NCBI GenBank assembly: GCA_051942245.1
Contig: JAVECL010000031.1
Coordinates: 1-64,000, forward strand
Source of the DNA: Trypethelium eluteriae
Taxonomy: Eukaryota
Direction: 5' to 3'
DNA length: 64,000 nt
Of the stretch, positions 33,852-59,627 are shown piece after piece. The notes below the pieces were generated by a model. That model worked only from the letters and a program-made list of their open reading frames with translations, ran no database searches and was not told the DNA's origin. Made by a program: the position numbers and the translations under genes. Numbering within the stretch: position 1 is the first letter of the stretch; each line of letters starts with the position of its first letter.

Positions 33852-34384
33852 TCAGACGCCAACCTAATGATATTAGTCTACGATGTGAAGGTGGGAGAAA
33901 GACAATACGAACCTGCCACGTGATAAGGGTGCTCTTCCCTTTGCTGGGTGCACCGGATGCATATGCCGTGATTTTGTTGAGCCAAGCATATTCAGTACTT
34001 GCAGTCTCGAAGGTCAACAATACATTGGGTACATGGGCCTTCTCGGTGACCATAATGCTAGCGCCATCGTCTGTCTGCATAGTGTAGACTGCATCTACAT
34101 TTGATACCCCGCTCTCACTTGTGACACTCCATATGGTACCTCCATTGACTTTGCCTAAGAAGAGAAGATGATCAATCTCCAGGCCGATGGTATGCCTTTG
34201 GCGCGTTTCTTTGAATCTTGTGCTTACCGTTGAGCTTCGGACCTGCGAATGTTCCCCCAGTGATGGTGACCACCCTTCTTTGCCCTAGAGCAGTAGCTCC
34301 AACAATGACGGGAGGAGCAGCTTCAAGGTTGATATTGCACAAGTAGGTCAGAGCTGGGGGTGGTGGGGTAGATGCATCCGCCAT
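33852..34384 (-). CDS. phnH: DUF3237-family protein, PhnH-like hydroalkoxylase candidate
   Basis: Three exons (first intron 34227-34155; tiny last exon VGV*). GQRRVVTITGGTFAGPKLNGKV..VDAVYTMQTDDGASIMV..LTFETASTEYAWLN fits the DUF3237 pattern. Confidence 0.72.
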
Positions 34385-34785: not shown

Positions 34786-34801
34786 CGGATTCCGGGTTCC
34801 G
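34786..34801 (+). promoter_or_regulatory. Putative cluster-2 TF site CGG-N3-CCG-N4-CCG
   Basis: CGGattCCGggttCCG in the centre of the DUF3237/FMO divergent promoter. An extra CGGgaaCCG lies at 34810-34818. Confidence 0.65.
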
Positions 34802-35186
34802 TGGGATACCGGGAACCGACCAGGTGGGCCGCCAGAGGTAACGGGCCATTCCACAAACTTTTAGTGAGGAATCTAACTGTTGTTTGTGCAGTTAGTTAGA
34901 AGTTTGTGTTACTGTACAGGCCGAAACAGTCAACAGCAACGATCGTTCCTTTTGACGGACACCAAGCCGCCGAGGTTGAGCGAGCCTTGGGTCAGCTCGT
35001 AGCACTGGGCTAGACGCAAATGTGTTGCAGGGATATATTTAAATTTATATCTTAGATCAAAACTCCAGTTCGCACATCAAGTGCTGAAAGACCTCGTGCT
35101 AGCTAAAGTCTGCAAACCGCGCGTTGAATTACTACAGTTCAGATCAAGAGCTCTGAGAGACCAACCAAACAGAAAGCATTGGAAAA

Positions 35187-36856
35187 ATGACTGCACAGGA
35201 TCTTCACGTCATTGTCATCGGTGCTGGTATGTCATTGCAATCTCAGAAAATGTTGCGCAAAAGAAAAATTTCGTGATACTGATCTTGTCTAGGCATTACC
35301 GGCCTCCTGACCTGCCAGGGTCTCAAGAAGGTCTGGCTCTATCCTCATCCACACACGAAAGGTATTGAGAATTGACTGGTACCGCTTTCACAGGCTGGAA
35401 TACGGTATTCCCTCTTCGAAAGAGATGTCTCGATGAACTATCGCAGTAATGAATGGACTATGGCTATCCATTGGGCACGACCCCTACTCAAAGATATACT
35501 GCCGGAGGAGATCTTCACAAAGCTAGCTACAATCGCGTGCAATCCTACTGCCGGAATTCATTCTGGCCTCTACCCCATCATAAACGGGGAGACAGGCGAT
35601 ATGATCACCGGCGTGCCATACACAGACGGCTTGCGAGTCCCACGCAGCAAGATGCGGGCAATGTGCGCTGAAGGAGTTGATGTCCAGGTAAGTCGTCACT
35701 CTTTTGCCAGGATGTGCATTTGCACGTAAAGGCGTTTGCGTGCATCAGCTCCTCGGCAAAAACCGGCTGGCTTGAAGTGACCGTATGCTGAGATCGAACT
35801 ATGAATAGTACGGCAAAAAACTTACCGACGTTGCGTTCAACGAGAGTGGTAATGGAGTTATTGCGACCTTCGCCGACGGAACGCTTGTGTCTGGGACCAT
35901 GATCATAGGAACAGATGGACCTCGGTCTCGAGTGCGCGAAACTGCTATGAACAGTGCCGACAACGCCGCAGTGACCAAGTTTCCCATCTTCCATACCAAC
36001 ATGACCGTGTGCTACGGCGATGCCGAGAAAGCACAGTTTGTACGGCAGAAGTTCCCAACGAGTTATTTGGCGCTGAGCCAGAGATCATTCCACGCATTTC
36101 AGTCAAGTAAGTGGAGAGACCATTCCTGCACCACGGCTGCTTTCTCCATAGGAGGCCAGGCTAATGACGAGTCACCGCAGTCTCCAGTATGCCTGACGGC
36201 CCTGACCATCCGGAATCATGGATCTTCCACATGGCCATGGCATGGCTTGGTGAGAGCGACAACTCGATGAGTTACCCAGAACGACTAGCAATGATCAAGG
36301 AGCGGGCCAAAGGGCTTGGCGAGCCTGCTCGCTCTGCGTTCTTGTGGGTGCCGGATGACACTGAAGTGCACAAGGCCGATATCAGCTACTGGGTCAGCCA
36401 GACTTGGGACAATCGCAAGGGACGGTTGACTTTGGTTGGAGATGCCGCGCATCCGATGCCGCCATGTGAGATATCCCCTTTCATTCGATTTCGGTGCTTG
36501 ATGGCGCAATCACCATGTGCTCTCGATTCATCACCTACTCAACTTTTGCACGAAGCTTTACTAACTTCGAGCTACTAGATCGCGGCCAGGGGCTTAACCA
36601 TTGCATTTGCGACGTCTCCCATCTGCTGGAAGGCTTGAAAGGTCTTCGGGATGGGAGCACGTCTCTTGCTGAGGTCGTCCGCGTGTACGAGAAGGAAATG
36701 ATTCCCCGTGGAAAGGAAGAGGTTAGCTGCTCAGTGGAAAACGGACTAACGCTCCATGACTGGAACAAAATCCAGGAGAGTCCGGTCTTCAGGCGTGGAT
36801 TCAAGCCTATGGACGGGCACAGCAATGTCAAGGAAGAAATTGTGGAGCCAGCTTAA
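35187..36856 (+). CDS. phnB: FAD-dependent monooxygenase, PhnB-like (multi-exon)
   Basis: MTAQDLHVIVIGAG-ITGLLTCQGLKK-AGIRYSLFERD..NEWTMAIHW, IIGTDG, TLVGDAAHPMPP..RGQGLNHCICD. About five GT-AG introns. Confidence 0.8.
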
Positions 36857-37787
36857 ACTCAGATCTCGGATGCACGTAAATAGAAATTTGCTGGCGTTTG
36901 GTGCTATTCAGTGCGGGGGGATAGTTAGTGAAGTGGGACTAAGAATTTAATTTTAGGATTACTCCATTCATTGATCTGCCAAAAAAAAAAAAAAGAAAAA
37001 GCTCCCTGGACTCCACAGTCGCGCAACATAACTCCTATCAGTAGCTTATTCATTCTGAAATCTTGGTTTCATCCACTACGAGCAACGGTAAGATCAGGAC
37101 GCCAGTATGAGGCGGGACCTGGAACTTAGTCAACAGTACATAATGGCATGCCTTACGATACTGCAACACGCCTCATTTCGATGGGTTCGCATTCCGCATG
37201 TCAGGTATCGTAGGTAGGTAGTCCGGCAACGCGTTGTGAATGCTTCTCCAGGTGGCACCCCATCACAACTCAGTGCCGGCCCAAGAGATTGATTGGTGAA
37301 AATTCTACGCACGGAGTCTTCGTAGGATCTCGCGCTAAGGGTCGCACACGACGCACACGTGTGGAGGGTAGCGTAGATGCAGATTCATACCCTGAAAAGC
37401 TCGGTTATTCTCGCTTGATTTGCGAACGCATGGCCTGCTAGGCCGCTGAGTTGAGACAGTGTTGTTGGTGGTCGGGTGGGCGGTCCCTCTACTCTACCTA
37501 CTCTAACCATGTTCATCCAGTGCGCCGGGAAGTCTGATCTGCAGGGTTCAGCCGTCGATGCACTACTAAAGTGGGACCTGCAGCTGAGACCTCGCGCCCA
37601 CGAGGAGCTTACCGACGGCCGAGAGCGACTAATGCAGCATTGCACGTGGATCCCTGGTTGAGTCGCTAGGTGCCGAGGTACTAAGTCGACTTCGACTTCC
37701 GAATCGCGTTGTCAGCGATGCATGCTGTGGCTGTGCTCATTGGCGAGCAATGCGGGTTAAGGTGGGTACACTAGCCATTCTTGCTTT

Positions 37788-37810
37788 CGGACGGCGGACC
37801 CCGGAGGCCG
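37788..37810. promoter_or_regulatory. Putative cluster-2 TF site, symmetric CGG-N4-CGG-N3-CCG-N4-CCG
   Basis: CGGacggCGGaccCCGgaggCCG, ~350 bp upstream of the OMT-like gene. Matches the motif on both strands. Confidence 0.65.
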
Positions 37811-38159
37811 TGTTGGAATGGCTTCCATAACCATCGTGCCCATCTATCTCGAGCGGGACTCGTTGGCGGAGGGGAGGGTCCCGGCGCGGTCCGAATGCTT
37901 GGGGTTAGTATGGTCAAGCCCCTCCGGATTATTCTTGCGTAGACCTTGCTGCTGGTGTGCTTAATCAGGGACTGGTCCGAGCCAGAGCTGAAAGCTGCCG
38001 TCCACAGTCCGTCAGGCAAAGACATCCCCGCGATGTTGGTATAGCTCATTCAGACTGCTTGTTGGCGACAGTGCTGGTGTCCGTAGATTGATTTCATAAC
38101 GTAGCACATTTGTCTGTCCGGTTAGAGACTCTTGCATCTCCAGACCTACCACGACCACA

Positions 38160-39831
38160 ATGTCTACCAAGCATTCAGATGACCTCGTGCACACCGCCGA
38201 GGAGATCCTTACGCGCACCTCGCAACTTGCGAAACAGCTCTCCCAACGCTCCATTACCCCTCCCAGCCTTGCCGTCGGCGCTAACTCCGATCTGTGGACT
38301 ACGCACGATGGAGAGATTGAGGCCTTACGATCCGCTACACTCGCATTGACGCAGCGTCTGGACAATCTGCTTGAGGGTCCTCACGGCGTCATTCATGAAT
38401 ACGTTTCGACCAACTGGGAGTACGGTGCGCTGTACACGCTACTTGAGTTTGATATCTTGGATAAGATTCCTCTCGACGGCTCTTCAGTGCCGGCTACTCG
38501 ACTTGCGGAACAGGCTGGACTGCCATGGGAGAAGCTCTTACGTATCTGTCGCCTAGTTGCAACTACCGGCATATTGCAGGAACCTGAAGAGGGTCTTTTC
38601 GCCCATACAGCCATCTCGGAGATATTGGTGAAAGACCCTGGGTTCAGCAGTTGGGTTGGATTCCAGTATGTTACCCCACACGCTCATCTATATGCCCAAG
38701 GATGCCGTCGCCAATGTGGCATCCACTTCGAAGTCTCGACTGACATTGGTTGCACTTCTTTTTTAGATTATTCGAGACGAGAGTCGCGAGCGCGAATCTT
38801 GCAGATTCGCTCAAGAAGCCTAATCCATACTGGACCGGCCAGGCTGCATTCGAGTACGCGTAAGTATCAATAATCTGTCGACAAGACGCGCACCTGGAGG
38901 TGATCTTGCCGAAATAAAGTCCAAACTAAAAGCCGAGTGTGTAGGTGGGGAATGCCCATGTACACCTGGCACGCAAAGAATCCCGAGAAAGGCAAACGGT
39001 TTGCCCAAGCCATGCAAAGCGTATCACAGGGTAAGCTCACAAGTCTCTCGCTCGAATATCGTGTCCATACTGATGAAATTCATTCAGGCCTCGACCCAGG
39101 AAATGGTATGATAATTGACTGGCTCACCGATCGTCGAAATGCGGGTCAAGATAGCAAAGGCCGTCTTATAGAGGTTTCGGGAAAGACCGGATCTTTCTCT
39201 CAGCAGCTTGCCACTATTTTCCCGAATCTCAATTTTGAGGTTCAGGACACATCGTTGGAGCTGCTTCGGCAGGGAGAGCAAAAGATTGATCCGAGCCTTG
39301 CTGAGCGTGTGCAATTTCGTCAGCGTGATCTCTTTACCCAGCGCTCCGCTAAGGAGATGGAGGAGAGCGAGCGCAGTTTCACATCCACAGTTTTTCTCTT
39401 ACGCGGCGTGTTGTGGAACCTTCCTGACAGTGAAGCCATCAAGTTACTGCAGAGCTTCTTACCGGCAATGCAACGTCACGATAGGCCATTGCTCCTCATC
39501 AGCGATCTAGTCTCTCCCAAATGGGGGACTTTCGAGCCCCACGTTGAGAGAGCCTTCCGGCGCCGAGACGTGACCCTCATGACAATGCACAATGTAAAGC
39601 AGCGAACTGCGACTGAATGGGATGAATTGATCCGCAGCGCTAGTCCACAATTTAAGGTAAGTGCTGTTGCAGCAGTTCATGTATTACGACTCTTCCATTC
39701 CATCTCTCCACTCAATTGTATACTGCTGGCTGACCATGTATGCATGTCTGTAGGTAACTTACCGCGAAAAATATTCGTCACACAGCTGTCGAGGTCTGTG
39801 GCAAGTTGAACTAGGCGACCATTCAGGTTAG
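38160..39831 (+). CDS. O-methyltransferase-fold protein with degenerate SAM/catalytic motifs (AflS/AflJ-like or non-methylating enzyme)
   Basis: Multi-exon. OMT dimerisation/wHTH region (LLRICRLVATTGILQEPEEGLFAHTAIS). SAM motif reads IEVSGKTG and the catalytic motif reads VLWNLPD. Last exon 39754-39831. Confidence 0.8.
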
Positions 39832-40215
39832 CAAACTAGCGGACGTGGTCAAGGCTCTTTCATGTGAACAAGATCTAGCAATTCAGTTTAGCCTTGAAAT
39901 GCCAGAAAACTCCGTGATAATTTAGGGGTACATCTTTCGACGATCATTTGTGTTAGGAGTTGCCTTAATCCATTGCACTGTTTGGGTAAGCTAGATCCAT
40001 CCCGGAACGGGTTTTTAGCCTATGGATTTTTAATTCAGCCGTCCGATTACGAAATCTTGAGACACTTGCCTTACTCTGTAGACTGCACATTCCCAAGCAT
40101 TGGAGAAACTGAGTAAATTGCTGATGATATCTGTACAAAAGGCGGCGATGCTCAATATCGCTTAAAGAAAGGTTTCACACCCTTAATACATTATGGCAGA
40201 TGATGTATCAATGTT

Positions 40216-40703
40216 CTACGACGTTACTTGGCCATCTGCGACATGCTCCTCAAACCAACCCATCGCAAACTTGGTCCTCTTAGGATCAGCAAAATTGGCA
40301 TGATCAGGATTGACGACGTTGATAAAGTGCGGATCTTGCCGTGCTCGAAGATAGTCTTTAACGTCCTTGAAAACAATCTGTATGACGGCGTCACAGTCGG
40401 ATATGCTTTCAGTCGGGAAACGGTCGCCATAGATCGTGTTGAACATAGGTTTTGACTCGGTAGTGTTATGTTGCTTTTTGGACGGAACATATCAGTCTCA
40501 CCGCAGAGGTGGACAATGGGAGTAGCTAAGGAACCATAATTGCTCACCATAGTGTAAGACACAATGTCATTTTTTGCTAACAGAGCCTTGAGATATCCCG
40601 CGTGAGTCTTGCTGATGTAGTCATGATAGTCTTTCTCCTCCATACCCTCCTTCCTGCAACTGAAAATGGTGATTGCATACAGCTTTCGACTCTGGACTGC
40701 CAT
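40216..40703 (-). CDS. EthD-domain protein (AurZ/CTB10-like dehydratase)
   Basis: Exons 40703-40548 and 40473-40216. ITIFSCRKEGMEEKDYHDYISKTHA..YTMQHNT..DCDAVIQIVFKD..DPHFINVVNPDHANFAD is the fungal EthD pattern. Confidence 0.87.
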
Positions 40704-42035
40704 CTGTGCTAGTAGTTTTTCAGACGAGACACCGAGACTTGCTTTGAAATGAGCGATAACAAATATGTGTGCAAGCAAAGAGAGGCGCACTACTCTGTAC
40801 AGCTATTGGAGCAAGCTTAGAAGTGCAGGCGAGACGTCAGAACTAGTACTGTATCAGACAATACTCCGCTGCGCTTAGATGTAGGACCGTCTGCAAGACT
40901 CCTTCTGCCAGAGAGGCCACAGAAGATCCGGTTTTCACACGGTGAGAAGGCCGACCCGGGCCCCGGAATCCCATTTCTTGACTAATTAATGCCCGAACGT
41001 TCGGAAGAAGCTAGTGCATGCGAGCACACCAAGCAATAAGCGCAGACTCTCGATCCAGTGTTTGAGTCTGATATCAGCTCTTCCAAATACTCCAGAACAA
41101 GCACGCAGTGCCCTGAATCATCGTCCCTGACGATGTACCTCAGCCACGGCCTAGAAGAGCTGTCGAATGAGACGCAAAAAGAACACGCGAGGCGCACAGC
41201 TACTCCACGTTGTTGATGGCGCGTGGCTGGGGACCGTATCGCTGACATGAGCAGTCCCAGCTAACGTCCCAGGGTGCCCGGTTGCAAGCACTGACAACGA
41301 CCTAAGTCAACCGCATTCGCATCAGTCAAACGAGACAGAACCGCTCTGGTGGGCCGCTTGTTGATAACTCATCTACCCAACACCCTACTGCAAAGTGCAT
41401 GTGGGCAGAGCGGCGAAGACCCTGAGGGGGCCAGGATGCCGGGGTGCCGGGATGCCGGGGTGCTGCCGAATTCCTGCTCCTGCTCCTTCCTTAGCTACTG
41501 TTGCTGCTGCCCTTGCGCGTTGGCGCGCCCGCTCTGATCACCACGGCCTTTGCTATTCTTGGTACTTATCTGGAATCGACAACGTGCTCACGCACACGCT
41601 CCAAAGTTTCAGGCCCTTGTCGCTCATCTCGTACGCTCTGTCCACGCGAAAGGTCCGAAACGAGGATTCGTTATGGGCCGGTTACCTCAACTCCACGGTA
41701 CCCTCTTACCCCAGCTGGAAAGCCTACGCGTCTTGGGACGATGGGTCCTTACCAAGCCCCAACCACCAAGCTCCTCAGCCAAGGGTCGTACCGAGACGTC
41801 GCAACGACACAGCAAGCTAGAGAGAGACGGACGGTGAGAATTCAAAATGATAAACCAGGCGTTCTTCGACTGGTGTTGAGGTGGCGTCCGCTAAGAATCG
41901 AAGATTACTAGTCTTTCATTCCTTCCAACGTCTTCCACAACCGCTCCCGCCCTCAGCCCGCTCACATCATTCCCTACCGAGTTAATCCGAACAGCATCAT
42001 GCACGCGAGACCGGCGCCTTTATCATGATCAATTT

Positions 42036-42051
42036 CGGCCTCCGTCGTCCG
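42036..42051 (+). promoter_or_regulatory. Putative cluster-2 TF site CGG-N3-CCG-N4-CCG
   Basis: CGGcctCCGtcgtCCG, ~235 bp upstream of the PKS2 ATG. A one-mismatch copy CGGgccCCGgaatCCC lies at 40957-40972 near EthD. Confidence 0.65.
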
Positions 42052-42284
42052 AGGCGGCATGGAGCTGCTGCCTGCAGGTGAGGCATAGGGCATGGTCCAT
42101 GCAGCCGCCCAGAAGTTTGCTTCTTTGGGTGGTACTTAACGGTTGTATCATAGCTCGATAATCATAGGCATTGTTTACAACCTACATATAGGCTCAGGCT
42201 CGGTCTCAGGCTTAGGTTCTGTATACCTCCATGCCTACTCAACTCCCAGGCCTCAACACGTCTCAACACGTCTGAACACCAAAC

Positions 42285-45200
42285 ATGGCTCCCATTACTG
42301 GAGCCGATAGTCTCCCGAGGGAAAGCCAGATACTTCTCTTCGGTGACCTCAGTTTAATCCAGTTCGAGGAACCCTTGCGTCGCTTGTTGCATGTCAAAAC
42401 CAATGCTTTGCTTACTTCTTTCTTTGACCGTGTTAACTATTCTCTCCGGAGGCTAATTGAAATTCTCCCTATCAAACAACAAAATCTTTTCCCTCATTTC
42501 ACCACACTTATCGATCTGCTCTCCAGATTAGGCGAGACTCCGGGCACAGCAGTCCTGAGGTTTTGCCTGCTGAGCGTTCATGAAGTGGCCCAATTCATCG
42601 AGTAAGTTACAGCCAGTGGACTCTGTGCCCAGATCCTGTTATCTATTCTCACCCGTCCACGCTGTGTTTGCTGATCGTGAATGGCAGATACTATGGGGAT
42701 GGATCCAGATCATATCCATCGCCATCCAACACCTATGTGATTGGCCCGTGTACTGGTGGCTTCGCTGCTGCAGCTATCAGTTGTTCACAAAACCTCCCCG
42801 ATGTTATACCTAATGGAGTGGAAGCAGTGACTGCAGCATTCAGGACTGCCCTTCGCTCGTATCTGATCGGCGACGGTCTCTCAAGAGCACAGTCTACCCA
42901 GTCAAAGTCCTGGTCAGCTGCTCTGAGTGCTCAGGGTGACCTCGATATCGAGGGAATGTTAAACGAATATGCAAAGACCAAGGTCAGAAACTTATATGGT
43001 ACACATTTCTTGCAAGAAACTTACCGTACTCGACCACAGACGCCCCTTCGTGACTCGACACTCTGGCTAAGTGCCACCACTCCCGGTAAAGCAACGACCT
43101 TGAGCGGACGGCCTTCTGTCCTGCAAGATTTTGTATCGACAAATTCGAACAGGCTCAAATCTCGCTTCCTGGATATTCATTCGCCATATCATGCAGCTCG
43201 ACTTTTCGACGCTGATGATGTAGAGCAAATTGTGGGCAAAATCCATCATCAGTCCAGGACCCGGCAGATACCTAGGATTCCTCTACTTTCATCATCGACT
43301 GGAGAGGTCGTCGAGGCTCCCGATTTCCCCAGCTTGCTTCGAATTGTGATAGAGGAAGCACTGCGAGAACCCATCCGGTGGGAGGCAGTATTATCGTCAT
43401 GCCGCACGCTCTTAGCAGAAACGCGGACAAAAAGTTGCACTATTTTGCCTTTTTCGAGCAACGCTGCCTCGATGGTCTCTACGACACTGGCCAAAGATAC
43501 AAATATCCACATTGACGTTGAAGATTTGTCGTCTCAGGCTACCCACAAAATTCCCTCAGCGCCCACGGGCCGCTTCGAGCATTCTAGGATCGCTATTGTC
43601 GGCTACTCTGGCCGTTTCCCATCCGCGGAATCGAATGAAAAATTCTGGGAGCTGCTAAAGGCCGGTCGTGATGTGCATCGCGAGATCCCGGCCGATAGGT
43701 TCGACTGGAAAGCACACTGGGATCCCACTGGGAAGAAGAAAAATACGAGCCGTGTCAAGTATGGATGCTTCATAGACGAGCCAGGTCTCTTCGATCCACG
43801 CTTCTTCAACATGTCTCCACGCGAGGCTGAGAATACCGACCCGGCTCAGCGGTTGGCCATCACAACGACCTACGAGGCCATGGAAATGGCAGGTATGGTA
43901 CGCAATAGAACTCCAAGCACCCAACAAGATCGTATCGGAGTCTTTTTCGGTACTACCAGTGATGACTGGAGAGAGGTAAATAGCGGACAAGACGTTGGAA
44001 CATATTTCATCCCAGGTGGGAACCGGGCTTTTGTGCCAGGGCGTATCAGGTGAGTAGCCAGATCATAATTCTTTATCTTCTCTTTGAACATTTGACGAGA
44101 GTGAGAAAGAGACTGACTTGATTATCAGTTACTTTTTCCGTTTCTCTGGACCCAGTCTTAGTATCGATACAGCCTGCTCGTCAAGTTTCGCCGCCATTCA
44201 GGCTGCATGCAGTTACCTTTGGAAGGGTGACTGTGATACCGCTGTTGCTGGTGGCACAAATGTCCTCACCAATCCGGACAACTTCGCTGGTTTGGATCGG
44301 GCTCACTTTTTGTCAACAACCGGTGAGTCAATTTTGTTTCAAGCTCTCTACAGGGCTATTGAAGGGCTATAATTTCTAATTAGATCATCCATTCAGGAAA
44401 TTGCAACGCCTTCGACGACGGAGCTAATGGCTACTGTCGTTCGGACGCCGTTGGCTCGGTCATTCTCAAGCGTCTTGAAGATGCTGAGGCAGACAACGAC
44501 CCTATCTTCGGAGTCATTGTTGGCACGAATACAAACCATTGTGGACAAACGGACAGTATTACGCGTCCGCACGAGGGTGATCAATCTAGCGTATTCAAGC
44601 GCATCATTCGACATAGCGATATTGACCCACTTGACGTGAGCTATATTGAGATGCATGGCACCGGAACGCAGGCTGGCGATGCTACCGAGATGAATTCAGT
44701 CATGTCGGTCTTCGTGCCCGAGTACAAGAGAACGACCGAGCGACCAGCTCGACCCTTGTATATCGGGTCGGCCAAGGCAAACATCGGGCATGCGGAGTCA
44801 GCGTCGGGTGTATCATCGCTGATCAAAGTGCTCATGATGATGAAGCACAGCGAGATTCCTCCTCACTGTGGTATCAAGACCAAGATCAACCACAACTACC
44901 CGCTGGACCTTGCCCAGCGTGGCATCAACATCGCATTTGAGACGACCCCGTGGCAACGCAAGGACAAGAAGCGGGCTGCTTTCCTCAACAACTTCAGCGC
45001 TGCTGGCGGAAATACGGCAATACTAGTTGAAGATGCCCCCGAGCGGCGCTCGAAGCAAATTGGAGCTTCGACCACTGAGAAAGACTCTCGCTCCGTTCAC
45101 ATTGTCGCCGTGACCGCCAAGACGTCTAAGTCCTTGACTGGCAACATCAACTCTCTGATTGCTTACCTCGAGAAAAATCCTTCCACCTCGCTTGGGGCTC

Positions 45201-48200
45201 TATCTTACACAACTACCGCTCGCCGCATGCATCATAACTACCGAGTTTTCGTCTCAGGATCCGATGCCACTTCTATCTCCTCGGCTCTCAAGTCCCGGGC
45301 CTTGGAAAGCGAAACAACACCTATCAAGCCTATCTCAAACGCCCCGAAGAAGTCACCCCGCGTCGTATTTGTATTTACTGGCCAGGGAACTCTTTACGCG
45401 GAGCTGGGAAGATTGCTCTTTGATACTAATGCAGCTTTCCGCAGCAGGATTCACCAACTCAACCGTCTCGCGCAAAGCCAGGGCTTTCCAGGCTTCCTCG
45501 GTCTGATTGACGGATCTGTCGCCAACCTTCAGGTTGTTGGAGCGGTTGTGTCACAGCTTGTGCACGTATGCATCCAGATCGCACTCTCTGAACTCTGGAA
45601 GAGTTGGGGTGTCGAGCCTGCTGCCGTAATTGGTCATAGCTTGGGCGAGTATGCAGCCCTCTATGCCGCAGGCGTGCTCAGCGTTGCTGATACCATTTAC
45701 CTTGTGGGCACGAGGGCGGTCCTTCTGGAAAAGCGATGCACGGCTGGTACCCATGCCATGCTTGCCATCAAAGGCTCGCAGGAGGCTGTGCTTGAGATGA
45801 TCCACAAGAGTTCTGAAGGCGAGACCGACAGGAAGAAGAATTGTGAGTTGGCTTGTGCAAATCAGCCTACAGGTCACGTCGTTGCGGGGCCCGTTGATAA
45901 GATATCTAAGGTCGCTCGTGCGGCTGCAGATGTCAACATTGAGACGGTGCGGCTCGATGTTCCTTTTGCATTCCACTCGGCTCAGGTAGAGCCCATCCTC
46001 TCCGAGTTCGAACAGGCTGCGGCGCAAGGAGTGGTTTACCATCCCCCAACCGTGCCTGTTCTCTCACCACTACTGGCAAAACTTGTGCCCGTAGGTGACA
46101 GCACTACACTCAATGCTTCATACCTTACTGCTGCATGTCGAAACATGGTAGACTTCAAAGGTGCTGTTTCTGCCGCTGTCTTGGCAGATGATGCCCTAGC
46201 CGCGGCTGATCGTACCATCTGGCTCGAGATTGGACCCCACCCTGCCTGCAGTGGTATGGTCAAGGGTACACTCGGCTCGCACTCAAAGACGGTTCCAACG
46301 CTGCGCAAGCAAGTCGATGCATACAAAACGTTGGCAACAGCCCTTGAGATGCTCTATCTTTCTGGTATTGAACTTGATTGGAATGAGTATCACCGCGACT
46401 TCCCCACTGCACAAGAGGTACTTGACCTTCCGATGTATGCATGGGATTCGAACACATACTGGATTCAATATCGCAACGACTTCTGTCTAACGAAAGGAGA
46501 CGACATGATGCCACTTGCTCTTGAGGCGCCCGTTCCGGAGCGCAAGCCGGTGGGCAAGTATATTTCGCCATGTGCGCAACAGGTCGTTGAAGAGTTCCAC
46601 GGTGCGGAGGAATCCTCGCTCATTGTCGAATCTGATATCTTCGATGAGAAATTGCTGCCAGTCCTTGCCGGCCATTTGGTGAACGGGGCCCGCTTGTGTC
46701 CATCTGTAAGTCTCATTCTGAAATGCCTCCTCGATATCCGTGGATATTTACTGACGCTTCTGCGACCACACTTAGTCCATGTACGCCGATCTTGTCTTGA
46801 CTATGGCAAAATATATGGTGCTCGAAAGCCCTAACAAGCTCCCAATCGCTACCACTGGCCTTGAGGTATTTAATGTCAGGATCGACAACCCCCTCATTGC
46901 TCGGACTACCGAAACTACTCACCGATTCCGTGCCTCGGCCACGGTAGAATGGCATACCAATGTCATTTCCTTTTCCATCTTCAGCGTCGATGGCTCCGGA
47001 AAACGTACCGCCTCCCACGCGAAACTTGATGTACGTATTACTCCTGAACAACATTGGTCCGACGAGTGGAAGCGCAACACGCATCTCATCACATCACGCA
47101 TCGAGGCGCTGGCTGAAAGCAAGGAGAGCCACACCATCAAACGTGGAATGGCGTACAAGATATTTGGCGCCCTGGTTGAGTATGGCAGTGAGTATCAAGG
47201 CATGGCAGAGGTTGTCATGGACAGCAAGCGTCTAGAAGCGTATTCGACGGTCCAATTCCAGGTTGGACAGCAGGGATTCCTGGTTAATCCAAAGTGGATT
47301 GATAGCGTTGGAGGCGTGGCTGGCTTCATCATGAACGCCAACGATGCTGTCGACAGCCGGACGCAGGTGTTTATTAATCACGGATGGGAGAGAATGCGGA
47401 TTGCAGAACCACTTGAAGAAGGCAAAACCTATCGGGCGTACAATCGCATGCAGTTGGTTGAGAAGACGACCTACGCTGGGGATACATACATTCTAGAGGG
47501 CGACCGGATCGTGGCTATCTTCGAGGGCGTGACGGTATGTTTTCTTGAATTTCCCTTGTCTGTGCTTGTTATATGAACGCTTTCTTCCTCGCTGGCGATG
47601 ACATGTGGATGTTTTACTGACCTATCCCTAGTTCCAAGGCGTCCCTCGTCGTGCACTTGATCACCTTCTCCCGGGCAAGACAAGTCCAGCGAGTGCAAGA
47701 CCGGTCCCACCGAGTCAACCAGCTCCACAGGTTCAGGCAAAGGCAGCAGCACCGAAACCCAAAAGCCACGTATCTGCACCCGCGCTGCAGCCAAAAACCA
47801 AAACTGCAGAAACATCATCCGGTGTTCTTGGCCGAATTCTGGCTCTCATTGGCGAAGAGATCGGCGTTACACAATCCGAACTTAAGCCAGAGGTTGATTT
47901 CATGGAACTGGGAATCGACTCGCTGCTCTCACTGACGATCACGGGAAAGATACGCGAAGAGCTCGGGTTGGAATTTCCTACTTCACTCTTCATTGATCAC
48001 CCAACCGTTGGAGATCTACGAGCTTTGATCGGTGGTGGAGGCGATGGCTTGGTCGTATCGGGCTCCAGCTCCAGTAGCGATGACGAGAGTGAGGAAACAC
48101 AACTTACTAGTGCTTCAGGTGAACAGGATCCACAAGTCCAGGATGATTCTTCCAGTCGCACTCGTGCTGCCCTCATCTTGAGGCAAATCATTTCCGAGGA

Positions 48201-49383
48201 AACTCGCGTTGGCATTGATGAGCTGACAGCATCGACAAGTCTTGTCGACATTGGGGTGGACTCTCTACTGAGCTTGACCATTACCGGAAAATTGCAGGAG
48301 CTCTTGAACGTGGACATTCCTTCGAGCACTTTCATGGAGTGCGACTCTCTGCAGGAAATCGAGGATGCTGTATGCAAGGAACTTGGGCTCCCAAAAGTGA
48401 CCGCGAAGAAGCCTGAGCCAGCCAAGAGCCATCCTGCGACATCGAACACACTAGCAAACTGTAACGGGCCAAACCCACAGATCCGATCATCGCAGCAAAG
48501 CAGTCAAAGTCAGGATACCGCCGATTCTTCCCTCCCGCAAGCAAGCTCGATCTTGCTCTCAGGCTCGCCACAAACTGCCCGACTGATCGTCTTCCTCTTC
48601 CCTGACGGCTCTGGTTCAGCGTCTTCGTACGCTGCGCTAGCACCCGCTATTGATACCAGCAGCATCGCCGTCTACGGATTAAACTGCCCATGGCGCAAGA
48701 GCGGAGCCGAGATGACTCGCCTGGGCCTCACAATGTCCACGATGGTCTCGAGATATGTGGCTGAGGTAAGACGACTTGTACAACAAACCACAAAAGCACG
48801 AGGGAAAGCCATTCCCGTTGCCGTAGGTGGATGGTCAGCCGGGGGCATTCTGGCTGTCGAAGCCATACGACAATTGCAACAGCACCAAGACGGCGACCAA
48901 ATGATAAAAGTTAGCCAGTTACTCCTTTTCGATTCTCCCAACCCAATCGGCCTACAGAATCCGCCTCAACGAATGTACGATTTCTTCGACACATTAGGCA
49001 TCTTTGGCGGTGGTGGCGGCGATAAGGCTAAATCTAAGACGCCCGAGTGGCTTCGTCAGCATTTTGATGCGTTCCTTCGCATCTTGGACGATTACGAGCC
49101 AACTCCTCTTCCCGATGCACCGGCTTCACTAATTGTGTACGCGAAAGATGGAGTGTGCAAGGACCCTAACGGGCCGAAGATGGAGACGCGGCCAGACGAT
49201 CCTCGGGAGATGCTGTGGCTGTTGAACAACAGGACAGACTTCTCGGCGGAAGGCTGGGCGAGTGTCTTGGGTCGGGGGAAGCTGAATGTGAAGGTATTGG
49301 AGGAGGTTAATCATTTTACTCTTATGGACCCGGGGCCAAAGATGAAAGAGGCGGGTCATATTGTCACGAAATTTCTTTCTTAG
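42285..49383 (+). CDS. Second non-reducing PKS SAT-KS-AT-PT-ACP-ACP-TE, probably PhnA-like
   Basis: Multi-exon. [45 protein letters not shown], ACPs LGIDSLL and IGVDSLL, TE GGWSAGG..NHFTLM. The PhnA-like assignment is inferred from neighbouring genes. Confidence 0.92.
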
Positions 49384-51337
49384 GACGTTAAAGGGCATCT
49401 GTAATGATTTGGCGAGGAAAGTTTGAGAATTTAGAACGATAGACTCTGGTCAGTCAAAGATTGACTAGGTTTGGAAAGGCATAGATTGTGGGTAGTGTTT
49501 TTCTGAGCGACACAAGGTTTTCTGTTTTCAGTGGTATCGGCGTCAAGAACATTGCCTGGTTCTATAGACTAGGAATATGGAATTCATTTAAAGATCTTTT
49601 TTATTCAAACCTTCAGTACAGAACGATAAACGTGATGTAGCAATTCAGATGGAGTACATAGCTTGGTAGGGAGATATCCAACCAGTTTCTCAAGCTACCT
49701 TACCCAGTATGCCCACTGCTACAGCAACGCTCACGTGACCAGCGGTGGGCTACACCATCCAGGTTCCTTCCGTACTAAGGTATCAACAAAGAAGGATATA
49801 TCCTACCAAACATCGCGCGTGGGGAAAGACCTTTCGTCATGAAACATAATGGAAGACTACAATATGCCAGCTGCAAAGGCGTTGTACCACTCTGAAGCGG
49901 CTCAGTCCAGAAAGCGTGGACGGACAAACAGCAACCCCATGGAGAATGGATTCGATCTAGCGACGGAGGACCGCCACGGTGTTTCGGCGACTAGAGTACA
50001 AGGACGACCAAGCAAGACGGATCTCTCTCCCAGCTCCCGAAGAGATACTGGTTAAGTCATACGCCTACGCAAGATTGCGCGTCGCATCCGCGAGCTACGA
50101 AGATCGCTGGATGAAAAGCCAACCTTTCAATAGCTTTGGAGACATTCTTGAATCAATGGCAATATGAGAAGATTCTCAGTGTACAATCATCGCCCAACAA
50201 TCCACGAGGTTCATATCAGAGCGACCAGCATCCCCGCCGAAAAATCAACCGTCCAGTACGGTGGCCCCAGGAGGAGAGACGCTACCTCGAGGTGATTCGT
50301 AATCCATGTTAAGAACTTTCGCGACGTGGGTACCGGAATTTGAATGTTACCCTGTAAGTGGAAGTCATTCGGTCACCCATCTGGTTGTACTCGTGTATGC
50401 TGACGCGTGTAGGGCTCTTTTGGCGTCACGCGATAGATACGAGTACGCGCGCGGATTCCGATGGTTGGCAAGTCAGCTGATTAGGTAGATATAGGTGCCT
50501 TTAGGTACCTAACCTAGAGGTATCTTAAGGTACGGTACCTAGTAGCTAATTGACCAGATCGCGCCCATCGAACACACTTTGTCAAGCGCCACCCTGTGAT
50601 TTTTTGTCCGGAGTCAAACACTTCTGAATCCAAGATAGAGAACGTCCCAGTCTTTTCAGTTTTAGAACGACTAGTACCCACCTGCATGTATTCGTTCTAA
50701 AGGAAACGGATAGCTCCTTGTCGTTAAGCAACCACTTCTCTGTCCCCAACTAAACCTCTCCGCAGTCGACGGATGCCTGATATCTAGGTACCATTGAAGC
50801 AACCCCACGTAATCTTTGGCTCATGCATGACCGCTTATCGGGATACGTGAAAGGGATAAGCGCTCTCGATGAGATGGAGGCTAGCAAGGTGCATTATTTT
50901 AGGATGACCGAAGACATTGGTTGAAGTCGATACGGTCTGACTTGTCATTAAGTGTTAGGTACGAAGCATTGTTTGTCGTAAGTTGAAAACCTCCACTCGT
51001 CCACAATCCTCCAAACCCCCAGAAGTAGTCGCCCACGTACTCAGGCCTTGAGGGGTGTCAGAGCATTAGACAGATGGATAACAACTCGAAATTCGGCTCC
51101 GAAGTAACATCTACAGGCGGTGGGTAATGAAAATTTGCTGACGTGCTTGATAATGTCTGAAACTTTTTGAAAGTATCAAGCTTCTAAACGATCTATATGT
51201 AGCCTTGCGGCCATCTATGCCTGGCTCAACCCCATTCTAACTTTGCGCCTTGACACCGGGCTCTTCCATGGAGATCCGCTCTATTGCCAAGCCTAGTCGT
51301 TTTAACGTCACATATGCGCCTTAATGCTTTTCTAAAC

Positions 51338-54202
51338 TCAGGAAACTCCTGACCTATAATGGGTATCCTCGTCTTGGTCTCGACTCCCTTCTGTCCGTGG
51401 TCTCTTTCTCCACCGCGTCGTCGTACGCTCTGGCACACTCTGCGCCTGTTGCTGCAGCTGCACGTCTGCCTGTCCTTGGCTCCCATCCCACATAGCAGGA
51501 CTCGACGTTCCCATTTGGTTCAAGAATTGCGAGATGTCGAATGGGGTATCCGGAATCGTGGGTGTTGGGGCGATGGATGAGGTGTTTGACGAATTATTTG
51601 TGTTCGCCATTGATGCTGCTGAAGACCACACCGAATCTGTTGGCAGAGTCCATGAAGATCTCGAAGATGGGGGAGCTAGACCGAGGTTGAATGGAGAGAC
51701 GCCGCTGTTGTAGAGGTTGAGATTTGGCAAGCCCATGGCATTTGACGAGGCATCGAGGAGCATCGGAGAGGTCTGGGCAAGTAGCGGCTCCGACGTGTAC
51801 ACATCGCCGTCACCAGTAGCATCGGCAAGGCTTGTATCGGTCGGACCAACGATCGCACGGATGATATCCACGAGATGCTGCGTGATCCGGCCAACTCGAG
51901 TGCCATAGGCATCCATCCTTCCACGCGTTGAGGTCGGCGGTGGTGCATTCCGGAAGCAGAGAAGCAGGGCTTCAAGCAATGAGATGTCTTCATTGATTTC
52001 TTGCTGTCCCTCATCGTTCTGAGATGCAGGTGATGTAGATGGTGACTTTGTGCCACCCGATCCTATACCGAGAATGTGCTTTGCAAGCACGAAGAGTGCT
52101 GCAGTGGGGAATACGCTTGTGAGTCGGTGAAGTGGCAGTGGCGCCGAGATCGGGGCCTGACCGAGACTGGAGCTCGCGGGTGTCAAAGGTGCAGTCCGCT
52201 GCATCGGGTCGGTAATAGATGAAGGTGACGAGGCGGAAGATGATTGCGGTCGGACTTCTGGGGATGTGAAAGCTGAGGTGCTGAGCAGGCGATCTAATCG
52301 CTCTGTCAATGCCTCATTCAGATGATGGTAGCAGGATGTAGCCACAAGAAGACAGCTAAGGCGGGCATCATATAAGACTTGTGCAGGGATGGGGCAAGCT
52401 CCATCACTGGAGCTGTCAGTATTTAATGCTCGGATGCGCGTGCCAAGGAAAGACAGATGCAGTGAGACTTCGTCCACGGTGCTGGGTCTAGTAGATGAGG
52501 GAATTTTGTGTGTTTGTGACCATGCTTTCAATTTCTGCTGCAAGCGGGCGAGCGCAATCGGTCGTTCAGCCGTAGAAACTTCAATTGTACTTGTAGGGCA
52601 GAGCAGGCCATGAAATTGATCCTGCATCTTGGCCAGCTCCCAATGAGGTGCGTGAGCGTGAGGCTGGCTCGACAGGGCTCCCTGAGCCTGTGTAGCAGAG
52701 GTGGTGGCTGGACGACCTTCGGAGTAGTCGTTAGGAAGCCAGCTGAGCGCTCCAGATGCTGTAGTTGAGTACCTGTCTCGAATGTAGAGGGACCTGAACA
52801 CTTTGAGTCGCTCGTCTGTCTCGCCGGCTGAAAGATTCGAAGGGGCAAATCCGTAGCCTGCCTGCTGTAGACCCGTGGTTTTTGCCAGCATGCACGCCTG
52901 GGCGAACATGGAGTCGCCGAGAGTTTCATTATGATATTGCTGTGCGAGGAGGCTCTAAAGGACAATCAACGGCGTTAGTTAAGTTCCACAAACGATAGTG
53001 CCAAGTCAAGTGAGATCGGCCATGGCAAGACGGTCGGTAAACTTACGAGAAGAGCCAAGGCCTGCACGTTGACGAGGCGTTGGGACATAAAGAAACTTGG
53101 CTTCCTCGCAGCAACGTGTGCTGCCTGGAGAATGGGTCGCACGAAGGGGTCGTCGCTATGGACTGGATGCTCAGCACCAAGCGTAAGGAGGATTATGAGA
53201 TTAAAGCATAAGGCCCACGGTTCGGATGTAGGGCTGGATGGGTCTTTGTAGACGCGTTCGACTGCCTCGTAGACGCTTTCGCGAGAGAAGATATCTGTGG
53301 CGTAGTCGGCTTGTTTGAGGAAACTGTCCAACATGACGGAGAGAAATTGTCTAGGCGGTAAGCAGATGGTATCCTGCTGTCCTAGTCTGGACCCGAAGTC
53401 CAGGCTGTTGTCGGTCCCTGTATCGAGCAGCATCTTGTTAAGCAGACCGCCAACGACCTCGACATGGTTGCCAACATGCGAGCTCAAGTCGGCTGCAAAG
53501 TCGCGACATAGTGCGACGGGCGTCCATGGGCCATGGTATCTTTCAATCAGCGTGTCGCCGTCTCGAACAACATGGCCAGGGGTGGTGGGCGGGGTGGTCA
53601 AAGGTACTTTGTCGTCGAAGTTGTTTGGAACTCGGTCTACTGATGCGGATTCCCCCTCAACGTCGAGCTTCCGCCGTTCGCCAATATTCGACTCCTTGAA
53701 CATAGCCGTCAAAGAAGACAATTCCCCCTGCATTGTGATCAGGCGATCTTGAATGTCGTCGAAATTCTGGCATCTGCACATCATCCACGTGAGACATTTG
53801 CCGACGTCATACTCCGATGGTAGAGTCAGATTCACTTACAGCACTTTGACATGGTTCACTCTCTTGGGAGGTGAGGAGTAGACGCATTCGACTTGATCGC
53901 GGTAACAGCTGCTGCATTGTGGCTTTTCCCTCCTACATCGGATCTTGCGGGTGCGGCAGCTGTTGCAAGCGCCATCGTGGGCTGTCCAGTTCTAGAGACA
54001 GAGCACGTTAGCATTTTCTTTGTCGACCTCAACATCGAGTGCCCTCTTGCATACGATGGCTAGCGCTTGGGGTGTGCTCTTTTCGAGACTTGATTCCCGG
54101 GGTGCTTGGTTGTCGATCGACACGACACCCCACTGAGATCGGTCGTCCCTGGGCAGACCCAGGCTTTCCAAAACATGGGTTGGCCAATGGAGAGCCTTTC
54201 AT
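51338..54202 (-). CDS. Zn2Cys6 transcription factor with fungal-specific TF domain (cluster-2 regulator); 5' end uncertain
   Basis: An exon at ~53990-53840 (absent from the ORF track) encodes HDGACNSCRTRKIRCRREKPQCSSCYRDQVECVY. It splices to ORFs 52975..53835 and 51338..52909 (NVQALALL..FAQACMLAKTTGL..ERLKVFRSLYIRDR). The start ATG is tentative. Confidence 0.82.
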
Positions 54203-55673
54203 CCTTTGACAGACGTCTACTGAGGATGGTTGACGTGACCATCGCATGGCAGAGTGGACTTTTCTTTGCGCAGTATTGGAGAGACAGAGAGTGTGTAGCA
54301 CGGGTACGAGGAGCGGTGGGACTGACTGAATCACTTGCCTCTTTCTTGGACGTGCCCGCCATCGAACTCTAATAGCGGATGTGGGTCTCCTTGCTCATAG
54401 GCCTGGTCGTTGCTTGACTTAGGTCTTCCCCAGTCTGCTCGTCGGGTTGCTCAATTGCGGATCAAGCTGAGGGTTCGCGGGGTCGACGGCAGCATTAAAC
54501 AGCAACGATGGTCACACAGCAATACAGATTCGAAAGAGTATTTGAGCTTAACAATGCACATTAGGAAGTCTGCCCGCCTTATCAACATTGGCTGCCCACG
54601 TTTACGACCCAGGCTGACTGACTAAGGCTTCCTGCCGCATGGACATCGCATTTCGTACCGTCACCCTCGTGGGAGTGAGACAACGCCACCAACAATAAGA
54701 AACGAGCCCGAAATGGGATCAACGATTGAGCGGAGAGGGTCCAAGCGTCAGACTCTCGTCCATGCAGGGTCTGGTGGATCCGGTCAGACGGTGGGCACGC
54801 ACGCATGGACCCATGGTATGGTGGAGCGGGTGGAGTGGGTGGCTTTTTTGCAGAGCAGAGTAAGATGACGCCATGCTAGTGCGATGAGTAGCGTACCCTC
54901 CCAGACGGGACAGTGGAACCATAGGAGCGGTCAACGACCTGGAGCTGGATCTGCCAGGTGGGACCCTAGAAGCTGCGGAGGTGAGCCAGAGTCAGAGCGC
55001 GAGCCAGCATCAGAGTCAGAGCCAATGCCAGAATCAGACCCTGATCCGGACGAGAGCTGCGTCGGCCGCCTAAATTTGGAAAATGGCCCACCATATTTGA
55101 GTCGCGTAGATGATGATGAATCGGTGTATCTAATCTCTTCTCCAAACAGAGACATTTAGCCTAAATTTCTGGGCCAGTGAGGAAGATGAGAAATGCGTGA
55201 AATGCGTGAGATTCGTGAAATATCTACCTAGGTAGGAGAATCGCCCAACTGCTCATTATAGAGACCATATCGTACACTTACTATAGGATGGTGATAACAC
55301 CCAAAATTGGTACCTTGAGATGAATGTAATTTCCTTCTCAGTCTTCACCAAAATAGCCTCTCGAGCAGTGCATTTGTGCGCAGGTGTGTTTTCACCGGTG
55401 CCCAGTTGAGCGGGTATCACCCGAGCATCGTACTCCATAGGTACTCTAGAATATAGTATTTCCCAGTTGAGAAGGTAGAGCTCATCGCACATGGTTATCA
55501 CGTTTCTTTCTTTTATTTGCTTTTTCTCTCTTTTTTTTTTTTTTTTCCTTTTTTTTCGAAAAGCAGCACTACACACACACGGAATCTCGCGAGCGCGTGC
55601 ATCTACGGGCTGATGTCGGCAAACACGCACCTACGATTTATCTGAAGGCGAAGTGAGAAGCACGGTGCGAGAT

Positions 55674-55799
55674 CGGCGGCCGAAAGCCGACTTGCGCCCT
55701 GCACTGGCGGACGTTGGGACGGCTGGTAGCACATATCGTGGGAATATTAAGTAAGACTCCCAGGCTTCCTTTCAGCCCCCAACCGGGTCCCGAAAACCG
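55674..55799 (+). promoter_or_regulatory. Two putative cluster-2 TF sites CGG-N3-CCG-N4-CCG
   Basis: CGGcggCCGaaagCCG (55674-55689) and CGGgtcCCGaaaaCCG (55784-55799) upstream of the prenyltransferase. Confidence 0.65.
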
Positions 55800-55990: not shown

Positions 55991-57385
55991 ATGGCGGTTG
56001 CGGCCCAGTCCCCAATCTTCCAGTCCATGGAGTCAGAGACTTCAAAGTCTAGGGCCGTGGACATGGCCAGTACGTCGCAAGGTCTGCCGTACTGGTGGAG
56101 TACCAGTGGACGCGATCTTGCCAACATGCTTCACGAGGCCAATTACCCCGAGGAAGTTCAACGTCACTTCTTGAGCTACTATCGAGATATCATTTGCCCC
56201 CGACTGGGAGGCCAGCCTGGCGAGGATTCTGTCAAGAGCGGGGTGGGCTGGGATGGGAACCCATTGGAATATAGCTTTGAGCTGAAAGGCACGACCAAGA
56301 CCCAGGCTGTTCGTTTCGTCGTTGATCTCACCCAGCTCCGCCCAGCGGACAGGAGCAGTCCTCTGAGCATGGACACCACGCAAAAAGTGGTGGACATGAT
56401 GGCAGACAAGGCACCGGGATTTGATGAGAACTGGAGCAAGTCGCTGCAGCGATGGTTCGTCTATGACCACCTATCTGAGGACGAACAAAAGGCCTTGATC
56501 GCCAAGGCAGGACAACAGACTTCTGTCATCCTGGGTTTCGACATATTCAAACGCGTTGCTGGCCCCGATGGGCTGCCGGTCATGGCCAAAGTCTACTACC
56601 CTCCCTGCTACACTGCCGCAGCCAAAGGAATTACCCGTTGGCAAGCCGTCCGTCAAGGTATCCAGCAACTTCCAGGCGTTAGCTCCTATCCCAACATCCT
56701 GAAGTCAACCGAGATCATCAACGACTACCTGTCTGACAAACCCAGAGAATGGCAGATGGGCACCCGGTACTTGGCCACTGACCTCGTTGGTCCGGAAAAG
56801 GCGCGCATGAAGGTGTACATGCGCTGCTTTGGACGGACCTTCGATGACATCTGGGACTACTACACCCTTGGCGGCCGAATCACCGGTGTCGAGGAAGATA
56901 AGGAGAAGTTCCGGGACATGATGAATTTCGTAAGCGGCACAAACAACTATGATGCAGAGATCTCCAAGCAGGACCCGCTGGACGAGACCCGATACCGATC
57001 GGCAACTGGCAAATTGACGGCCATTTACTTCTCAATCTCGGCCGACAACCCCATTCCGGCCCCCAAACTCTGCATCTACCCTGCCAACTTCGCACCCAAT
57101 GACGAAGTCATTGCCAAGGGACTGGATAAGTGGTTGACCAAATATGGGTGGCACCATGAAGGGGCCTCCATGGAGGAACAAGTGAAGAGAGTCTTGTACG
57201 TGCTTTCCCGCTAATCTGATTCGAGTGACGCTTCTAATCAAGGAAATAGTGACCATCGCCCACTGGGAAAGAAGACAGGTATTTTCACTTTCATCGGCAT
57301 CGGAAGGAAGGAGGATCCAACCAGCAAGGATCTGAGTATCCAAGTCTACGTGACCCCTGAGCTTTATGAGACCCCGCGGTACTAG
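55991..57385 (+). CDS. phnF: DMATS/ABBA-family aromatic prenyltransferase, PhnF-like
   Basis: Exons 55991-57195 and 57250-57385. YWWSTSGRDLANMLHEANY, WDGNPLEYSFE, AKVYY, LATDL..ARMKVY, YYTLGGR, PKLCIY..ND, IQVYVTPE. Confidence 0.85.
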
Positions 57386-57819: not shown

Positions 57820-57871
57820 ACGTGTTTCACAAGTGAGCTGATCACCCGGGCGAGCTGATCAACCCCACCAC
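57820..57871 (+). repeat. Left terminal inverted repeat
   Basis: ACGTGTTTCACAAGTGAGCTGATCACCCGGGCGAGCTGATCAACCCCACCAC, with an internal direct repeat GAGCTGATCA x2. Confidence 0.95.
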
Positions 57872-57910
57872 GCGTCGCGCGTACGAACCTTTAATTCTCA
57901 ATTGACAACC

Positions 57911-59554: not shown

Positions 59555-59627
59555 AAGTGTAATCTAATACTTTTTGAATCTATATAATCTAGTTGTGGAT
59601 AATTAATGGGTACAAAAGCATTGAGGG

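Follow-up and report, generated by a model that had tools for sequence, protein, structure and literature searches.

A CGG-N3-CCG-N4-CCG element in the promoters of a phn-type cluster of Trypethelium eluteriae and its predicted Zn2Cys6 reader

The site of the Zn2Cys6 regulator GliZ is given as TCGG-N3-CCGA (bioRxiv 10.1101/2020.04.17.047639) and that of AflR as TCG-N5-CGA or TCGG-N3-SCGA (PMC12501005), the CARbox shows three widely spaced triplets (PMC12719309), and Gsm1 reads overlapping CCGG (PMC10954478). Conserved sites of cluster transcription factors (TFs) are seldom found from sequence alone; in one study a conserved CGG dyad emerged for one of eight clusters with a C6 TF (bioRxiv 10.1101/2020.04.17.047639). 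Here we describe the motif CGG-N3-CCG-N4-CCG in the first 64,000 nucleotides of contig JAVECL010000031.1 of Trypethelium eluteriae (assembly GCA_051942245.1), a stretch referred to below as the window, which contains two non-reducing polyketide synthase (NR-PKS) clusters according to Pfam. The motif had been pointed out in a first-pass annotation of the window and is found in the promoters of one of them, cluster 2. Cluster-specific Zn2Cys6 sites and sites with several triplets are already known, and the motif is a real element of its own.

The triple motif in the cluster 2 promoters

The motif shows eight strand matches in the window, which correspond to five non-overlapping loci: 34786 (both strands), 37788 (reverse strand) with 37795 (both strands), 42036, 55674 and 55784. 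All five are inside the four promoter regions of cluster 2 (5,569 bp, with limits drawn by us that take in 95-160 bp of first exons), every region is covered, and the other 58,431 bp of the window contain no exact match. The first-pass annotation had listed all these positions and the one-mismatch copy at 40957 (forward strand); a second one-mismatch copy in the cluster 2 promoters, at 34803 (reverse strand), had escaped it. Its expectation of about 0.04 matches in about 5.5 kb agrees with the 0.03-0.05 given by shuffles. In dinucleotide shuffles of the whole window the motif is found 0.28 times on average and twice at most, and none of 100 reaches eight. That the motif had been defined post hoc, a concern of the same annotation, does not account for the enrichment, which holds after two look-elsewhere tests. 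In the first, covering all CGG/CCG triples with spacers of 0-12, five loci and four regions are reached by no shuffle (1000 for each k of 2, 3 and 4), the maximum being three loci. In the second, covering all 64^3 x 169 three-triplet patterns, only the motif and its reverse complement give at least five strand matches with every one of the four regions represented, and no pattern of this kind emerges from 60 trinucleotide shuffles. One-mismatch matches amount to 24 against 9.7 expected, the excess being mostly the cluster 2 sites themselves, and the other one-mismatch loci (12898, 17555, 25287, 40414, 46677, 48948 and 62527) are within chance level. The motif is thus non-random, and because the spacer letters differ between copies these are not duplicated repeats. 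The window shows no match to structured RNAs of Rfam, and over 9.9 kb run X1 departs from it at 14 positions and by one 2-bp gap; none of these is in a motif site, and they are too few to be informative on strain variation. The intergenic region between the EthD gene and the PKS2 gene also contains a CCGG-rich 8-bp tandem repeat (41426-41460), which supplies extra half-sites.

The third triplet is statistically real. The central CCG/CGG is present in all six CGG-N10-CCG pairs of the cluster 2 promoters and in none of 11 elsewhere, and all nine CGG-N3-CCG pairs of these promoters belong to triple sites (seven exact and two with one mismatch), against 0 of 11 elsewhere. No pairwise sub-motif is enriched except within the triple, and plain dyad analysis gives pairs that are only marginal after correction (E 0.05-0.19); the signal resides in the triple and not in the pairs, and the information of the motif is not confined to two triplets. 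The description of the site as three half-sites, an inverted pair plus a direct repeat, is upheld at the level of sequence. Judged by its letters, the motif is an inverted pair of the AflR/GliZ type overlapping a direct repeat CGG-N4-CGG of the Tac1 type. The CG steps of the three triplets are at 0, +7 and +14, a 7-bp lattice with helical rotations of 240 and 120 degrees, so that the triplets face three sides of the helix, 120 degrees apart.

The exact site at 34786..34801 can be read on both strands, has CCGG at its centre and is in the divergent promoter of the DUF3237 gene and the FAD monooxygenase (FMO) gene, 386 bp from the FMO ATG and 409 bp from the DUF3237 ATG; the one-mismatch site at 34803..34818 (reverse strand) is directly beside it. 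Upstream of the O-methyltransferase-like gene, at 350 bp, a symmetric array CGG-N4-CGG-N3-CCG-N4-CCG (37788..37810, both strands) contains four triplets, equivalent to two overlapping exact sites. The EthD gene shows the one-mismatch site at 40957..40972 (forward strand), 254 bp upstream, and the PKS2 gene shows an exact site at 42036..42051 (forward strand), 234 bp upstream of its ATG. Two exact sites on the forward strand precede the DMATS gene: 55674..55689, 302 bp upstream of the ATG, which holds both a GliZ-type TCGG-N3-CCGA and a TCGG-N3-TCGG of the type found in cluster 1, and 55784..55799, 192 bp upstream. Sites are located 192-426 bp upstream of the enzyme and accessory genes, and all six such genes have one. 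The five exact loci and both near sites are 150-450 bp upstream of an ATG, a zone which makes up 36% of the promoter DNA (p 0.006 for the five exact loci, p 0.0008 with both near sites; the zone was picked post hoc). The TF gene of the cluster shows no proximal site, the nearest being 1.3-1.4 kb from its ATG. The earlier statement that all four promoter regions are covered therefore stands for the regions, but the sites at 55674 and 55784 serve the DMATS gene (192-302 bp) and not the TF gene (1.3-1.4 kb). Autoregulation of the TF was considered and is unsupported, with the nearest site 1.3 kb from the TF ATG.

The phn-type cluster and its Zn2Cys6 protein

Cluster 2 starts with a gene encoding a DUF3237 protein, a PhnH-like hydroalkoxylase (33852..34384, reverse strand), and the FMO gene, an orthologue of phnB (35187..36856, forward strand); both show two introns that are spliced in transcripts among the RNA contigs, with run X2 covering only parts of the two genes, so that missing coverage of the other genes carries no information. 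Downstream are the O-methyltransferase-like gene (38160..39830, forward strand), which has a degenerate S-adenosylmethionine (SAM) motif and no catalytic His, a gene assigned to EthD by its domain match (40224..40703, reverse strand), and the NR-PKS gene PKS2 (42285..49383, forward strand), PhnA-like by architecture and context. They are followed by the gene for a Zn2Cys6 TF with a middle homology region (51338..54362, reverse strand), whose zinc-cluster exon at about 53840-53990 precedes a four-heptad coiled coil, and by the gene for a DMATS prenyltransferase, an orthologue of PhnF (55991..57385, forward strand). PhnH (PDB 6jjs, E 5.7e-14) is the best of three PDB matches of the DUF3237 protein. 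The DMATS shares 66% identity with PhnF over 401 aa, and both are in one clade with a support of 99 in a quick tree of 38 of the 121 DMATS rows. The FMO gene model P0180, to which the exon in the window is 100% identical, shares 79% identity with PhnB over 404 aa. The domain order of PKS2, SAT-KS-AT-PT-ACP-ACP-TE, fits a PhnA-type NR-PKS, judged by architecture and not by PhnA sequence. On these homologies, cluster 2 is a phn-type phenalenone cluster; the independent likeness to PhnH, PhnF and PhnB agrees with the earlier assignment of the DUF3237 and DMATS genes to the same cluster as PKS2.

Since T. eluteriae makes trypethelones and phenalenones (PMC9608606), cluster 2 is likely its trypethelone cluster. 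No catalytically intact O-methyltransferase and no ring-cleaving oxidase is encoded within the limits marked by the motif (33852-57385), and methylated and ring-degraded trypethelones are reported for T. eluteriae (PMC9608606); the genes for these steps must then be located elsewhere, with cluster 1 as one possibility. An alignment with GedA and the cluster 1 methyltransferase shows that the product of the 38160 gene has a degenerate glycine-rich motif and a replaced His of the His-Asp pair; its domain annotation is limited to the methyltransferase dimerisation domain. With its O-methyltransferase fold and degenerate SAM and catalytic motifs, this protein is probably a co-activator of the AflJ type. 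Just after the DMATS gene there is an apparently intact DNA transposon of the pogo/Fot1 type (57818-59681), with a 570-aa DDE_1 open reading frame, 59-nt terminal inverted repeats that are 97% complementary, and TA flanks; a gene encoding an AAA-ATPase-like protein with a visible Walker A motif and then a gene with a HET-like domain follow at the end of the window (60488-63400).

The zinc cluster of the TF is intact (PF00172, E 3.6e-11). Its ATG is placed at 54362 from the model P0298 of V. virens, which corrects the gene limits of 51338-54202 given at first, and its last exon is 100% identical to a T. eluteriae protein. In the stretch 53840-54362 the public models P0001 and P0297 have out-of-frame starts and miss the zinc-cluster exon; loss of the zinc cluster, as P0001 would have it, was rejected as an annotation error, the cluster being intact in the DNA. 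A GC donor at the first intron is possible and would agree with the N-termini of the homologues. In 11 genomes an orthologue of the TF is located 1-7 gene numbers from an orthologue of phnB or phnF: two of Leptodontidium, one of Leptodophora, one of Pseudogymnoascus, two of Podospora, and one each of Stylonectria, Recurvomyces, V. virens, T. subeluteriae and T. eluteriae. Linkage is not seen in Polytolypa and Xylogone, where the TF and phn matches are on different contigs. The F. vanettenii/solani group has an orthologous member of the TF family. Among 150 family representatives, with names looked up for only 10 of the unnamed rows, no named row is from P. herquei, T. stipitatus or A. niger. 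The zinc cluster, the linker and the four-heptad coiled coil are strongly conserved among the orthologues.

Occurrence in other fungi and readings of the element

A scan of metagenome contigs with the DMATS alignment gave nine loci (L001-L009); L001 has only 83 bp of upstream DNA and L008 less than 90 bp, L003 and L004 repeat L002, and L006 is identical to L005. The locus L007 contains a broken DMATS gene whose best matches (68-70%) are proteins of the PhnF clade, and it shows one exact motif 294 bp upstream of the ATG, very like the 55784 site. None of 500 shuffles of its 868-bp upstream region gives an exact site, and this is the only exact match in the 62,974 bp of the non-redundant other loci. 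The DMATS loci outside the PhnF clade that have upstream DNA (L002-L004 and L009) show no motif. In L007 (2108-4500) the broken phnF-type gene is divergent from an intact pyridine-nucleotide oxidoreductase gene, presumably phnG-like; since the site survives though the DMATS gene has decayed, it may serve the oxidoreductase. The other locus of the clade with usable upstream DNA, L005, lacks the exact motif, and the two together are evidence, at the level of sequence, that the motif is functional and that the element has turned over between clusters. The presence of the motif in phn cluster promoters, a check proposed with the first-pass annotation, is thus borne out by L007 but not by L005, and the motif is not universal. 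L005 and L006 contain a syntenic PKS-EthD-OMT-like-FMO-DMATS cluster (OMT, O-methyltransferase), and L005 has a highly reducing PKS (13345-20909) within 2 kb of it, another case of adjacent clusters.

The motif is almost certainly a functional cis-element, and the cluster 2 TF is, with good probability, its predicted binder. From the statistics of the motif, the positions of its sites, the gene identities and the linkage of the TF we infer a mechanism in which binding, the identity of the binder, its stoichiometry and the role of the co-activator are predictions. The motif would be the upstream activating sequence of a phn-type (atrovenetin/trypethelone) phenalenone cluster, and the Zn2Cys6 protein (51338-54362) would bind upstream of each of the six enzyme and accessory genes and turn them on jointly, probably helped by the O-methyltransferase-like protein of 38160 as co-activator. 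All three triplets would be major-groove half-sites for zinc-cluster heads; as they are on three faces 120 degrees apart, three heads should fit without clash. The most economical assembly would be one coiled-coil dimer plus one head of a second dimer, and the four-triplet array at 37788 could take two full dimers. To the motif as an activating site of the cluster 2 TF with three zinc-cluster contacts we give an even chance.

A true trimer is the bolder variant. That this TF family is three-headed, with a coiled-coil trimer or obligate higher-order assembly that would bring three zinc clusters round the DNA on half-sites 7 bp (120 degrees) apart, is doubtful. The coiled coil shows the pattern R-h-x-x-h-E/Q, with R in 24 of 26 sequences, I/V at d in 20 of 26, and Leu/Phe at a, and R-h-x-x-h-E is described as a trimeric coiled-coil motif (PMC6173795). 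A three-copy model of residues 14-93 of the V. virens orthologue shows self-association through the coiled coil with a score of 0.34 (best control 0.02), contacts agreeing in at least 90% and a pLDDT of at least 72. The mark of 0.32, which the model exceeds narrowly and which was calibrated on two copies and on microbes, is reached by 21 of 30 solved homodimers and by none of 23 monomers; on eukaryotes it is reached by 17 of 29, by one of seven without an older relative, and by none of 30 monomers. The model supports self-association and not a trimer, its stoichiometry not being fixed, and its result may come from likeness to solved Gal4-type dimers. Weak PDB matches of the coiled coil to trimeric coiled coils (E 0.05-0.9) are below significance and were not used.

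Several observations weigh against three contacts by the cluster 2 TF. Dimeric Gal4 has the R-h-x-x-h-E/Q pattern too, and the pattern was set aside as a trimer argument because it is non-diagnostic; of the 25 best-defined contacts in the three-copy model, all but one (24) involve just two of the copies. The fourth position of the lattice is CGG at one of the five exact loci (the 37788 array) and unconserved at the other four, and a general four-half-site palindrome was rejected on this count. The motif is found in one of the two PhnF-clade loci with usable upstream DNA. The three promoter regions of L005 contain no exact motif and one one-mismatch site, and they show instead CTCGG-N3-ATT five times (4771, 4798, 4823, 7597 and 9604), an element represented in each of the three and absent from the rest of the 21 kb, with none of 1000 shuffles reaching five; it is similar to a variant described for the nsc cluster, TCGG-N3-TTTR (bioRxiv 10.1101/2020.04.17.047639). 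Finally, a 5' T precedes six of the 12 CG-N5-CGG dyads inside the cluster 2 sites (p 0.045), a likeness to the dyads of cluster 1.

An ordinary dimer of the TF on the outer pair CGG-N10-CCG, with two zinc clusters and the central triplet as a spacer preference exerted through the linker or DNA shape, is the main alternative, though a rather unlikely one. CGG-N10-CCG is the Put3/Tea1 spacing. The motif reduces to the palindrome CGG-N4-CG-N4-CCG (six matches against 0.08 expected), which explains why the sites can be read on either strand, and the solved relatives Gal4, Hap1, Ppr1 and Put3 are the closest PDB matches. Zinc clusters are also described as dimers on two triplets (PMC10954478). However, the central CG is extended to a full CCG/CGG in six of six cases (for which we estimate a chance of about 0.44 per case), both near sites (34803 and 40957) retain the middle triplet and miss an outer one, and the 37788 array carries the 7-bp lattice on to a fourth triplet.

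Cluster 1 (872-31779) contains an NR-PKS with CTB1 as best PDB match, an O-methyltransferase/FAD fusion, a laccase, a fasciclin, an AflR-type TF and an MFS protein, and by these genes it looks like a cercosporin/perylenequinone-type cluster. Its TF (10964-12280) could read the cluster 2 sites, alone or in a composite with the cluster 2 TF, with both clusters as one regulon and the AflJ-like gene as partner; this is unlikely. AflR is reported to bind TCGG-N3-SCGA as two monomers, with ACG tolerated at the second site (PMC12501005), and each triple site holds two overlapping dyads of AflR spacing. The six promoter regions of cluster 1 are rich in TCGG-N3-TCGG (five against 0.31 expected) and TCG-N5-CGG (10 against 3.1), both of the 7-bp geometry, at 4700, 7339, 7598-7622, 9966, 10081, 12904, 17535, 17554, 17676 and 24039, all six regions being represented and 7598-7622 showing four CG steps on the 7-bp lattice. 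The cluster 2 promoters contain TCGG-N3-TCGG at 55680, at 55790 and, as a stand-alone dyad of the cluster 1 type with no third triplet, at 37612..37622 (reverse strand) in the promoter of the O-methyltransferase-like gene; the 5' T of the site dyads points the same way. On the other side, the cluster 1 promoters show no exact triple and no excess of CGG-N3-CCG (one against 1.34), the sites at 34786 and 40957 lack TCG-N5-CGR, the gene for the degenerate O-methyltransferase is a conserved member of phn clusters (L005), and the motif recurs at a phnF-type gene of another fungus (L007). Cross-talk between clusters 1 and 2 is possible by these sequences, and the separate cluster 2 regulon proposed in the first-pass annotation was overstated, because a related dyad with the same 7-bp lattice is present in the cluster 1 promoters and AflR-type dyads are formally inside the cluster 2 sites.

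Improbable as well is a functional motif whose reader is the product of a gene at another place in the genome, or one that works as a loose group of CGG half-sites with no fixed grammar. Binding to dense half-site arrays, free of spacing rules, is frequent among zinc clusters (PMC10250231), but here spacing and orientation are fixed under a null that preserved the CGG/CCG counts, and the TF travels with the cluster across genomes. That the motif is a product of chance or of low complexity in GC-rich promoter DNA, for which the post hoc definition and an extrapolation of 0.28 per 64 kb to the order of at least 100 chance matches per fungal genome might be cited, is hardly credible: the look-elsewhere tests largely refute it, and the site positions, the out-of-sample match of L007 and the differing spacers also speak against it.

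Comparison with known systems

The motif provides a precise, testable cis-element and a candidate activator for a phenalenone cluster, and would assign a specific locus to the trypethelone pigments of this lichen fungus, which can be cultured. In the literature covered, which includes few subscription papers, neither a published binding site for a phenalenone cluster nor a fixed, mixed-orientation three-triplet element was found. The earlier view that three half-sites are unusual for a Zn2Cys6 protein holds in part: precedents with several triplets exist, such as Aro80, and it is the fixed triple of mixed orientation that was not found reported. If all three triplets are contacted, the grammar of Zn2Cys6 sites would grow from two half-sites to a fixed arrangement on three faces, and if the three-headed reading were true, the geometry would be outside the monomer and dimer modes described for the family, with a 9-base, highly specific barcode for phenalenone clusters. 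The motifs of the two adjacent clusters, side by side, are a natural test of avoided or used cross-talk.

At the level of gene content, cluster 2 shares homologues of PhnB, PhnF and PhnH and a two-ACP NR-PKS with the phn (herqueinone) cluster of P. herquei and the Fusarium PKS35 cluster (PMC6568001); cluster 2 differs in having seven genes only, with no second, intact O-methyltransferase or oxidoreductase inside the limits marked by the motif. At the level of the site, the motif is like those of AflR and GliZ in being a pathway-specific Zn2Cys6 site repeated across the promoters of one cluster and in its CGG-N3-CCG inverted pair, and differs from them in having a third triplet at fixed spacing and neither a strict 5' T nor a strict 3' A; the candidate TF, with its coiled coil and middle homology region, is not of the AflR type. 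The drug-responsive element of Tac1, CGG-N4-CGG (PMC10370356), has the same spacing as the direct-repeat half of the motif; as described there it consists of two triplets followed by a T-rich tail, with no inverted third triplet. The Aro80 site, four CCG repeats 7 bp apart (PMC7947893), also offers more than two triplets of fixed spacing to one Zn2Cys6 protein, but its repeats have one orientation and a 10-bp period, are on one helical face and are bound pairwise (PMC7947893), whereas the motif shows mixed orientation, a 7-bp period and three faces. In the binding of yeast zinc clusters by half-site density (PMC10250231) more than two CGG contribute as well, with no rule of spacing or orientation, whereas the motif is strict in both.

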